From: Escherichia coli O157:H7
GTDB lineage: Bacteria > Pseudomonadota > Gammaproteobacteria > Enterobacterales > Enterobacteriaceae
DNA length: 64,000 nt
Direction: 5' to 3' (one strand)
Assembly (NCBI RefSeq): GCF_013167455.1
Contig: NZ_CP038328.1
Part shown: positions 11,701 through 14,700 of the stretch, in pieces
Layout: each line of letters opens with the position of its first letter
Numbering within the stretch: the first letter of the stretch is position 1
Program-made: the position numbers

Positions 11701-14700
11701 TTTCAGTAAAATATTACTCGCCTCCAGGATGTCGATGGCCAGACGATTACTCGAGTTACGTCAAATTCCTCTGCATACTATTGCGGAAAAATGTGGCTAT
11801 AGCAGTACGTCGTACTTTATAAACACATTTCGACAATATTATGGTGTAACGCCACATCAGTTTGCGCAACATTCGCCAGGTACCTTTTCCTGACATATTT
11901 TGCATTTGAATATTGGTCAGGATCTCACACCTGCTTCATGTGAAACTCTTCCCTGATGATTTCTGCCGGGCTACCGGCTAGTTCTCTTTCGCAGTTTGCC
12001 AGGCGGTATAGGTATTTTCAGGAGGAAAAGACTCGGCATGTTTGGGATTATTAAGCTGACAATTCATACGATTACGGGAATGTGGGTCAGTATTGTGCTG
12101 TTCAAATTGATGACGAATGGCTGGAGTGGTTTCTACTTTCAGTGCTGTGTACTAAGCCTGGTATTCCTGACGGTTAGCTGGTTGTTGAGTGGTGAATGGT
12201 TAGCAGGAAAGAGTAAGGCTGAACCTTCACGTTCAACCTTACTCTCATTTACACGTTACGCTTTTTTAAAGCGGGCAAAGAGATGTTCCACTACAACGAA
12301 AAAGACCGGAACAAAGTAAATTGCCAGCACTGTTGCGGCAAACATCCCGCCCATCACGCCGGTACCTACCGCGTTTTGCGCGCCAGAACCGGCACCATGA
12401 CTGATAACCAGCGGCAGCACGCCGAGAATAAAGGCCAGAGAGGTCATCAGGATTGGGCGTAAACGCATCCGCGCCGCTTCGATGATTGCCTCTATCGGCG
12501 TTTTCCCTTCTTTCTGCATCATCTCAACGGCAAATTCGACAATCAGGATGGCGTTCTTGGCGGAAAGCCCGATGGTGGTCAGCAAACCAACCTGGAAGTA
12601 GACGTCATTACTTAAGCCGCGCAGATCGGTGGCCAGTAATGCGCCAACGACGCCTAACGGAACAACCAACATCACCGAGAACGGAATTGACCAGCTCTCA
12701 TAAAGTGCGGCGAGGGCGAGGAACACCACGACCAGTGAAATCGCATACAGCGCAGGAGCCTGATTTGAGGATAACGCTTCCTGATACGACAGTCCGGTCC
12801 ATGAGTAGCCGACGCCTGCCGGAAGTTTAGCGACCAGGTCTGCCATAAATTTCATGGCGTCACCGGTACTTTTCCCGGCCGCCGCTTCACCTAAAATCTC
12901 CATTGACGGGATGCCGTTGTAGCGTTCCAGTCGCGGTGAACCATAGGTCCATTCGGTAGACGAGTAGGCAGAAAGCGGTGCCATCGTGCCAGAGGCGTTG
13001 CGTACATACCATTGGTTGATGTTATCCGGCAACATACGGAACGGCGTGCCTGCCTGGACATACACTTTTTTCACCCGCCCCTGGTTGAGGAAGTCGTTCA
13101 CGTAGCTGCTGCCGAAGGCGGTGGAAATTGTCTGGTTGATATCAGACAGCGCCACACCCATTGCCTCAGCTTTCGCGGCGTTGACGTTCACTTTGAACAT
13201 CGGCGTATCTTCCAGGCCGTTCGGGCGTACCCCGGTGACCTGATTCGGTGATTGCGCTGCCAGTGATAACAGCTCGTTTCGTGCCTGGGTTAGTTTTTCG
13301 TGCCCCAGGTTACCGTTGTCCAGCAGTTCCATATCAAAACCTGACGCGGTACCCAGTTCAGCCACCGCGGGTAAGTTGAACGGGAAGACGACGGCTTTAT
13401 TGATACTGCTTAGCGCAATCATTGCCCGCTGAATGATCGCGGTAACCGAGTTTTCCTCACCGACACGTTCAGACCACGGCTTGAGACTGATAAACGCCAG
13501 ACCGTTGTTTTGCCCCTGGCCGCTGAAGCCAAAGCCGCCAACGGTAAACACCGACTGAACATTATCTTTCTCTTTTGTAAGATAATAATCCGTCACCTGT
13601 TGCAGCACTTTCGTGGTGTTAACCATGGTGGCACCGGAAGGTAACTGCGCGGTGGTCATAAATACCCCCTGATCCTCTTCTGGTAAGAAAGAGGTCGGCG
13701 TGCGCAGGAACAGCACCGCCATCCCGGCGCAAATCAGCAGGTAGATCACCATGTAGCGACCGGTACAACGCAACAGTGAGCGGGTGCTATCGGTATAGTG
13801 CTGAGTTGATTTTTCAAACAGCGTGTTGAAGCGTGCGAACAGGGCATTAGGTTTGTGACCGCCTTCCGGCGCGGCTTTCAGAATGGTGGCGCACAGGGCA
13901 GGGGTCAGGCTCATTGCCACAAATACTGAAAGCAGCATGGAGGAGATCAGCGTGATGGAGAACTGGCGGTAGATCTCCCCGGTTGCACCGCTCATAAAGG
14001 CCATCGGCATAAACACTGCGGAAAGAACAACGGCAATACCGACCAGCGCACGTTGGATCTGCCCCATCGATTTATGCGTCGCTTCCTTCGGTGGTAGCTT
14101 ATCTTCCGCAATGACACGCTCGACGTTCTCCACCACCACGATGGCGTCATCCACCAGTAACCCTATCGCCAGCACCATCCCGAACATAGTCAACGTGTTG
14201 ATGGTGAAACCGACCGCCGACAAGATCGCAAACGTCCCGAGAATAACCACCGGTACGGCAATCGTCGGGATGATTGTGGCACGGAAATTCTGCAAAAACA
14301 GATACATGACCAGGAAGACGAGGATGATAGCCTCAACCAGTGTTTTGAAAACTTCCTGAATAGAAATTTCGATAAACGGCGTGGTGTCGTAAGGATAAAC
14401 CGTCTTCAGACTTGCCGGGAAATAGGCTGATAAGCGGTTCAGTTCCTCTTTGACTGCCCGCGAGGTATCCAGGGCGTTTGCTCCGGTAGCCAGTTTGATG
14501 GCGATCCCGGCAGCAGGTTTGCCGTTATAGCGCGCCACGGTGGAATAATCTTCCGCCCCAAGTTCGACGCGGGCGACATCACGCAGCAGCACTTGCGAAC
14601 CATCTTGCTGAACTTTCAACAGGATTTTGCCAAATTCTTCCGGCGTTTGCAGACGCGTCTGCACAATGATCGAGGCGTTTAGTTGCTGGTCTGCCGCCTG

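Follow-up and report, generated by a model that had tools for sequence, protein, structure and literature searches.

A probable Escherichia-restricted gene for an acid-induced small membrane protein between gadW and mdtF

The 64,000-nucleotide (nt) stretch of Escherichia coli O157:H7 DNA analysed here (contig NZ_CP038328.1; "the window") carries a 93-codon open reading frame (ORF) between the acid-resistance regulator gene gadW and the convergent pump gene mdtF, on the gadW strand. This ORF is very probably a genuine gene restricted to Escherichia, induced by acid together with gadW, translated from its own Shine-Dalgarno (SD) sequence and ATG, and encoding a helical-hairpin inner-membrane protein that would act as a modulator. 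The evidence that carries this interpretation is the pattern of substitution among Escherichia lineages: the amino-acid sequence of codons 1-57 is under purifying selection. The ORF has already been published under two names, sORF15 and XECs371, on the basis of ribosome profiling (see below). What the present analysis adds is the proof of coding constraint, the delimitation of a core of about 55 residues, and the finding that the overlap with mdtF is lineage-specific and uninformative on selection, whichever of the short and long forms is ancestral. The parts of the ORF are as follows:

12020-12025, + strand: SD sequence AGGAGG, 12 nt ahead of the ATG
12038 (ATG) to 12317-12319 (TAA), + strand: 93-codon ORF, sORF15 of K-12 and XECs371 of strain Sakai
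12038-12208, + strand: conserved core, codons 1-57, delimited by substitution rates, codon-position counts and the E. fergusonii ortholog
12209-12246, - strand: hairpin of the mdtF intrinsic terminator, within ORF codons 58-70, from folding
12256-12319, both strands: ORF codons 73-93 lying antisense to the 3' end of mdtF

A preliminary description of this locus, made from the sequence alone, had proposed a 93-codon ORF with an ATG preceded by AGGAGG, and that much is exactly what is found.

Coding constraint and the conserved core

A GadW scan of species-representative genomes yielded six further Escherichia loci, with GadW identity from 96% down to 75%. The eight aligned lineages are the O157 window, K-12, three E. 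coli-type lineages, Escherichia sp. E1V33, E. whittamii and E. albertii. All eight have the ORF as 93 codons free of gaps and stops, and in all eight the block TTTTCAGGAGGAAAA, which contains the SD sequence, is invariant, as is the ATG. Over codons 1-57 the ratio of non-synonymous to synonymous substitution rates (dN/dS, Nei-Gojobori) is 0.05-0.25 in comparisons with the window, with dS reaching about 1.1; this is comparable to gadW, which gives 0.05-0.11 for the same pairs, while the last 400 codons of mdtF give 0.01-0.02. Against E. albertii, 20 of the 27 changes are synonymous where 20% would be expected (p = 2e-9). Variable columns at first, second and third codon positions number 17/10/34 for codons 1-57, and 20/14/41 when codons 1-72 are counted (chi-square p = 3e-4). 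The other five frames contain three to nine stops each and have dN/dS near or above 1, with the exception of the antisense shadow frame that shares wobble positions with the ORF, which is an expected artefact. The ORF is also kept in all seven of a further set of E. coli genomes, picked from the lower-identity part of the match ranking, where eight variable sites are synonymous and one is non-synonymous.

The region just upstream behaves differently. The spacer after the gadW stop varies at 59 of 131 alignment columns, 14 of them gapped, and its identity to the distant lineages is 76-77%. Across 15 genomes from the breadth of the genus the ORF shows no stop or indel, while the adjoining spacer gathers indels. 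Upstream of the mdtF overlap, then, the ORF shows the codon-level conservation and synonymous bias that the preliminary description had named as a check, and its substitutions do not simply follow the mdtF frame. Inside the overlap the latter comparison is inapplicable, because the two frames share their third codon positions, and conservation there is uninformative for the same reason.

These results bear on the simplest alternative, namely that the ORF is non-functional and that chance loading of ribosomes at an SD-like sequence within a long 3' untranslated region (UTR) gives translational noise. Neither length nor SD sequence is remarkable in itself: an ORF of at least 93 codons arises in 4.2% of dinucleotide shuffles of 11894-12330, which is borderline, the six frames of the window hold 110 ORFs of at least 93 amino acids, and AGGAGG followed by ATG after 4-13 nt occurs four times in the window against 2.9 expected. 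The ORF also has no RefSeq annotation, and both discovery papers list many unvalidated candidates (PMC10746267, PMC5597208). It is conservation, rather than ORF length or the SD sequence on their own, that lifts the ORF above chance. Noise would not produce the low dN/dS and the excess of third-position changes over distances at which synonymous sites are nearly saturated, nor would it keep stops and indels out of the frame next to a spacer that accumulates them, and this explanation is accordingly given very little credence.

A shorter ortholog occurs in E. fergusonii. A profile search of 1.84 billion representative proteins returned only Escherichia-type sequences, including fragments and frameshifted calls, plus one diverged 54-amino-acid protein, which is encoded in E. 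fergusonii ATCC 35469 (locus L010, 6001-6165). Its gene begins 19 nt past the stop of the GadW ortholog (62% identity), and the order of genes is the same: gadW ortholog, ORF, and then convergent mdtF-mdtE-gadE. The E. fergusonii ortholog covers only the core part of the E. coli protein and ends before a GC-rich hairpin, AAGGCCGGTTTCCCGGCCTT, 42 nt short of mdtF, so that the two do not overlap. Identity between the E. fergusonii and E. coli ORFs at the three codon positions is 55/78/25%, with a proportion of synonymous differences (pS) of 0.97 and of non-synonymous differences (pN) of 0.32, which is the mark of coding sequence at a distance where synonymous change is saturated. G28-W-S-G-F32, F34 and C36-C37 are among the residues that do not vary between E. 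coli and E. fergusonii. A search with a second profile, built to include the E. fergusonii sequence, added nothing. Judged from these searches, the family does not extend beyond Escherichia (Shigella records included), and what is conserved in it is a two-helix hairpin.

The published homolog lists are broader, naming Vibrio, Klebsiella, Salmonella and Enterococcus (PMC10746267), and both papers give best matches or homologs in unrelated genera, including Staphylococcus epidermidis (PMC10746267, PMC5597208). Because exhaustive profile searches find Escherichia-type sequences only, this suggests that the records in unrelated genera are mislabelled or contaminated. A plasmid-borne copy of the locus was likewise considered and rejected, since the three PLSDB matches (NZ_OL790696.1, NZ_CP134663.1 and NZ_CP141089.1) are all 4.8-4.9 Mb, that is, chromosomes filed as plasmids.

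The two hydrophobic helices noticed in the preliminary description are clear in the translated product. Kyte-Doolittle hydropathy in a 19-residue window peaks at residues 4-22 (1.68) and 34-52 (1.81), and AlphaFold2 places helices at residues 2-26, 32-61 and 63-84. The predicted layout of the core is a first transmembrane (TM) helix at about residues 4-25, an invariant turn N27-G-W-S-G31, and a second TM helix at about residues 32-52, which holds the invariant C36-C37 and is followed by E53-W54. The C-terminal 43 residues are strongly basic, with 11 lysines or arginines against two acidic residues. Taken together with the E. fergusonii comparison, the two-helix core of about 55 residues is the unit on which selection acts. 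The scans of the protein against Pfam and NCBIfam gave no match at E values up to 10, and a Foldseek search of the AlphaFold2 model against the PDB gave a best E value of 6.3, a figure without meaning for a helical hairpin.

Annotation, ribosome occupancy and expression

The neighbourhood of the ORF contains the following features:

9973-10797, + strand: gadX, from the ORF list and RefSeq annotation
10809-10922, - strand: GadY small RNA (sRNA), Rfam RF00122 at 150 bits, between gadX and gadW as expected
11165-11893, + strand: gadW coding sequence, AraC-family acid-resistance regulator, from the ORF list and the RefSeq annotation of identical or near-identical genomes
11888-11922, + strand: hairpin across the gadW stop codon, TCCTGAC paired with GTCAGGA, 7 bp
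11894-12019, + strand: gadW-ORF spacer, non-coding and poorly conserved in the alignment
11940-11981, + strand: sORF14, a published ORF of 13 codons (GTG to TAG), not conserved
11965-11978, + strand: weak terminator-like hairpin, at chance rate, half deleted in one lineage
12256-15369, - strand: mdtF coding sequence, resistance-nodulation-division (RND) permease, the convergent neighbour, from the ORF list and RefSeq annotation

A 551-nt query (11850-12400) is found in 5,414 of 5,426 complete E. coli genomes and is 100% identical to O157:H7 strain PV15-279. RefSeq annotates no coding sequence between gadW and mdtF in K-12 MG1655, nor in an O157:H7 genome whose sequence matches the window exactly across this query. 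The impression that the ORF is unannotated therefore held for the reference annotations and failed elsewhere: the same 93-amino-acid product appears as a "hypothetical protein" in many GenBank records, the O157 and K-12 variants are each present on at least 1,000 contigs, and the GenBank cluster takes in records from Shigella flexneri, Shigella boydii and E. marmotae.

Ribosome occupancy, another check named in the preliminary description, had already been published for both K-12 and O157:H7 Sakai. In K-12, Schumacher et al. (2023, mSystems) found sORF15 in ribosome profiling (Ribo-seq) data by inspecting the gadW 3' UTR, at NC_000913.3:3663464-3663745 on the minus strand (PMC10746267). The window protein is identical to sORF15 at 92 of 93 residues (Table S7, PMC10746267), with arginine at position 65 in the window and cysteine in K-12, and alignment of the window to K-12 puts the ORF at the same genomic position as the published sORF15/XECs371, on the gadW strand and ending inside mdtF. 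At pH 4.4 relative to pH 7.6, the log2 fold change (log2FC) for sORF15 is +4.21 in Ribo-seq (adjusted p 1e-38) and +4.03 in RNA, with a change of +0.27 in translation efficiency, and the Ribo-seq log2FC for gadW at pH 4.4 is +3.03 (PMC10746267). The same report gives two TM helices by DeepTMHMM, and a western blot on which a 3xFLAG fusion of sORF15 was seen when expressed from pBAD24 with a 15-nt native leader and no gadW (PMC10746267). It gives no selection analysis, unlike the present work.

In O157:H7 Sakai, Hücker et al. (2017, PLoS One) reported XECs371 at 4405602-4405955 from RIBOseq data (PMC5597208). It was published as the longest possible ORF, of 118 amino acids from an upstream CTG (window 11963), with 23.4 and 48.8 reads per kilobase per million (RPKM) and ribosomal coverage values of 1.21 and 1.51 in lysogeny broth (LB) and brain heart infusion (BHI), respectively, and with a predicted inner-membrane location and two TM helices (PMC5597208). 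All 93 residues of the window protein are contained in it. The N-terminal extension of XECs371 sits in the unconserved spacer, and the CTG start is therefore rejected in favour of the conserved start at ATG 12038. A second upstream start, TTG 11996 (107 amino acids), is rejected because of spacer indels and frame changes among lineages.

A 32-codon ORF in another frame (11956-12054, + strand) spans the SD sequence and start codon of the 93-codon ORF, and it matches the published XECs372 by length and computed position only. The RIBOseq signal of XECs372 (RPKM 69.8 and 161.8) is above that of XECs371 (PMC5597208); it probably reflects initiating ribosomes at the 12038 ATG and not a separate gene.

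The preliminary description had suggested a small membrane protein co-transcribed with gadW, and this suggestion gains support from selection on the core, the invariant SD and ATG, and the published profiling and RNA data. Co-transcription fits because the RNA rises with gadW at pH 4.4 while translation efficiency is unchanged. The related remark that no obvious terminator follows gadW mostly stands, the qualification being one weak hairpin at 11965-11978. As a gadW terminator this hairpin was rejected, being weak, of a kind that occurs at chance rate, and half deleted in one lineage. gadW and the ORF share a reading frame in the window, with TGA at 11891 and tandem TGAs at 11954 and 11957 between them, and this relation is not conserved, since the spacer carries indels in other lineages. 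Within the same spacer, sORF14 was rejected as a second conserved gene: its stop is lost, indels occur, and its length ranges from 6 to 126 codons among Escherichia lineages, its frame running into the 93-codon ORF in two of them.

The tail, the mdtF terminator and RNA structure

Beyond codon 57 the ORF runs through sequence that serves another gene. The terminator hairpin on the minus-strand RNA has a 16-bp stem and a loop at 12225-12230, with a folding energy of -32.1 kcal/mol (z = -7.4). The stem is conserved, and in Escherichia sp. E1V33 one of its pairs shows a compensatory change from U-A to C-G. The residues encoded by the loop (codons 63-65) are the most variable of the tail, with P63 changing to F, R or H, S64 to L, and R65 to C. 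Further on, the ORF overlaps mdtF by 64 nt, made up of the stop codon of mdtF, 20 of its sense codons and one more nt, so that the overlap with the last 20 or so codons of mdtF on the opposite strand, as originally described, is real. All six variable columns in codons 73-93 are third positions in both frames and dN is zero for every pair. The C-terminus of MdtF is identical in all lineages, and the zero dN of the overlap is explicable by mdtF alone, since the wobble positions of both frames coincide. Conservation of the tail is thus silent on selection at the protein level, because the terminator hairpin and the mdtF antisense frame constrain the same codons; the conservation of codons 58-93 and the position of the stop can be explained without selection on the ORF. 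The site of the stop codon would be fixed by the conserved Ile-Tyr codons of MdtF and not necessarily by selection on the ORF, and the basic sequence of the tail would be dictated mainly by the hairpin and the mdtF overlap.

This arrangement invites the idea, raised in part in the preliminary description, that the act of translation matters and not the protein, with ribosomes tuning the termination, stability or convergent expression of the mdtEF and gadW transcripts. The ORF does traverse the mdtF terminator hairpin and 64 nt of mdtF antisense, an arrangement kept in all eight lineages. However, codons 1-57 overlap nothing and yet show purifying selection at the amino-acid level, which a purely cis-acting ORF would not need. 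Moreover, the E. fergusonii ortholog stops ahead of both the hairpin and mdtF, so that the overlap is not a feature of the family, and the stop position inside the overlap may owe nothing to the ORF, as just noted. As the sole function of the ORF, modulation of mdtF by translation is therefore not favoured and is considered improbable; within the E. coli clade it may act in addition to the protein.

An RNA element could also be conserved in place of a protein, either a structure in the gadW 3' UTR or an sRNA derived from it. The hairpin under codons 58-70, with its low z value and compensatory pair, speaks for such an element. So does the 7-bp hairpin at the gadW stop codon, in which the 3' arm GGTCAGGATCT is non-coding and invariant in all lineages while the loop diverges; its seven outer pairs are invariant and show no covariation, and it is possibly a processing or stabilising element. 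The three-base periodicity of substitution in codons 1-57 is, on the other hand, a coding signature. In addition, the Rfam scan of 10700-12400 matches only GadY, and the leader at 11886-12060 folds no better than its shuffles (z = -0.5), with no structure that would sequester the SD sequence. An RNA element as the cause of the conservation is accordingly most improbable.

Proposed role and comparison with known systems

The favoured explanation, an acid-induced membrane protein gene, can be set out as follows. The ORF would be transcribed as the distal part of the gadW (and gadX-gadW) mRNAs, its RNA rising with gadW under severe acid stress (about 16-fold at pH 4.4). It would be translated independently from its own invariant AGGAGG and ATG, because these signals are conserved and the plasmid with the 15-nt leader gave protein without gadW. 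The product would be a helical-hairpin inner-membrane protein, with both termini cytoplasmic and the N-G-W-S-G turn periplasmic according to the positive-inside rule, and selection acts on its core of some 55 residues. In the clade of E. coli and E. albertii the frame would run 36 codons further, through the mdtF terminator and into the wobble-matched antisense frame of mdtF, adding a very basic tail (11 lysines or arginines). By analogy with other bacterial small membrane proteins, the likeliest role of the product is to bind a larger membrane protein and to modulate it under acid stress. Candidate partners are MdtF, GadC, HdeD and YhiD, all from the acid fitness island that holds the ORF, or, on the model of SafA-YdeO (see below), a sensor kinase. 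Synteny cannot tell these candidates apart, because the linkage of gadW, the ORF and convergent mdtF is conserved genus-wide.

A more specific version of this role can be imagined, in which the protein, induced by acid, serves a transporter of the island as accessory subunit or regulator, for example as an AcrZ-like partner of the MdtEF-TolC pump, whose gene the ORF overlaps, or as a partner of GadC, the glutamate/GABA antiporter. In the E. coli clade the gene would, besides, have been lengthened through a terminator into mdtF antisense, and ribosome traffic over it would couple expression of the gadW operon to 3'-end formation of the convergent mdtEF mRNA. This combination is speculative and, as a whole, unlikely.

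Several observations weigh against the favoured explanation. On the side of sequence, the SD-to-ATG spacing of 12 nt is above the optimum, the ortholog in E. fergusonii starts with GTG and lacks a recognisable SD sequence, which makes its expression putative, and the mean predicted local distance difference test (pLDDT) score of the AlphaFold2 model is 68, which is moderate confidence. An element of the insertion sequence family IS3 lies inside the ORF near 12160 (about codon 41) in the E. coli wastewater isolate SW070912 (locus L009, about 3311-4700) and is a natural knockout in one isolate. Five alleles (P0032, P0024, P0012, P0039 and P0107) keep residues 1-46 or 1-57 and have frameshifted or truncated tails; P0032, with its altered tail and intact core, is on 19 contigs. 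These may be true variants or homopolymer sequencing errors, and intact 93-residue forms are far commoner in the databases. No homolog outside Escherichia and no family match turned up in the searches described above, so that the function proposed for the ORF rests on analogy alone. On the experimental side, the only detection of the protein reported is that of the plasmid-borne FLAG fusion, none having come from the native locus on the chromosome, and gadW by itself complemented the acid sensitivity of a gadW mutant (PMC10746267). A large independent role of the ORF in survival at pH 3 is not indicated under those complementation conditions. Literature searches on the function of sORF15 found no follow-up, phenotype or binding partner.

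If the favoured explanation is right, the K-12 and RefSeq annotations lack a conserved gene for an acid-induced membrane protein, in the very acid-resistance island of E. coli that has been studied best, and genome-wide screens, proteomics searches and knockout designs will therefore overlook it. With standard deletion designs, gadW deletions may be polar on the ORF and mdtF deletions would remove its last codons and stop; phenotypes assigned to gadW or mdtF could thus partly belong to the ORF. The evidence for selection lifts a Ribo-seq "candidate" to a gene deserving a name and a functional test, and such a study could be limited to the 55-residue hairpin.

Known classes of small proteins and overlapping genes offer several comparisons. 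A small hydrophobic protein that overlaps a convergent transcript brings to mind the type I toxins, here with antisense RNA from mdtF read-through as the check on the toxin. The product is indeed small, hydrophobic and membrane-targeted, and its range is a single genus. It has, however, 93 residues and two helices, while the usual type I toxin has a single helix and fewer than 60 residues. Neither Pfam nor NCBIfam gives it a match to any toxin family, and Rfam finds no sRNA family other than GadY in 10700-12400. Induction from pBAD24 for 1 h gave detectable product, with no toxicity reported in the available text (PMC10746267). That the gene is kept by purifying selection in a constant chromosomal position beside gadW also speaks against a toxin, and there is scarcely any reason to expect one here.

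The overlap recalls the shadow-frame ORFs laoB and ano of enterohaemorrhagic E. coli (EHEC), described by the Neuhaus/Scherer group, in that the last 21 codons are antisense to an annotated gene and the wobble positions coincide. Unlike these, only 64 of its 282 nt overlap, the selected part is intergenic, and the E. fergusonii ortholog has no overlap at all.

The small membrane protein AcrZ is a partner of the RND permease AcrB and modulates this pump, and the neighbour of the ORF, MdtF, is a paralog of AcrB; AcrZ itself co-purified MdtF in a cell-free co-immunoprecipitation. AcrZ has 49 amino acids and one helix, whereas the ORF encodes 93 amino acids with two hydrophobic helices and does not belong to the AcrZ family, matching nothing in Pfam or NCBIfam at E values up to 10. 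The ORF is transcribed with gadW and is convergent to mdtF rather than co-transcribed with it, and binding to MdtF is only putative.

SafA (B1500), from the safA-ydeO operon, is a small inner-membrane protein that is co-transcribed with an AraC-family regulator of the acid-resistance circuit and acts through binding to a larger membrane protein, PhoQ. It crosses the membrane once and its gene precedes that of the regulator, unlike the ORF; the ORF also lacks any Pfam or NCBIfam match, and it shows no sequence similarity to SafA in these scans. The likeness to SafA is one of arrangement: the ORF lies directly 3' of an AraC-family regulator gene, gadW, on the same strand and with no conserved terminator between the two, and its RNA is induced together with that of the regulator.

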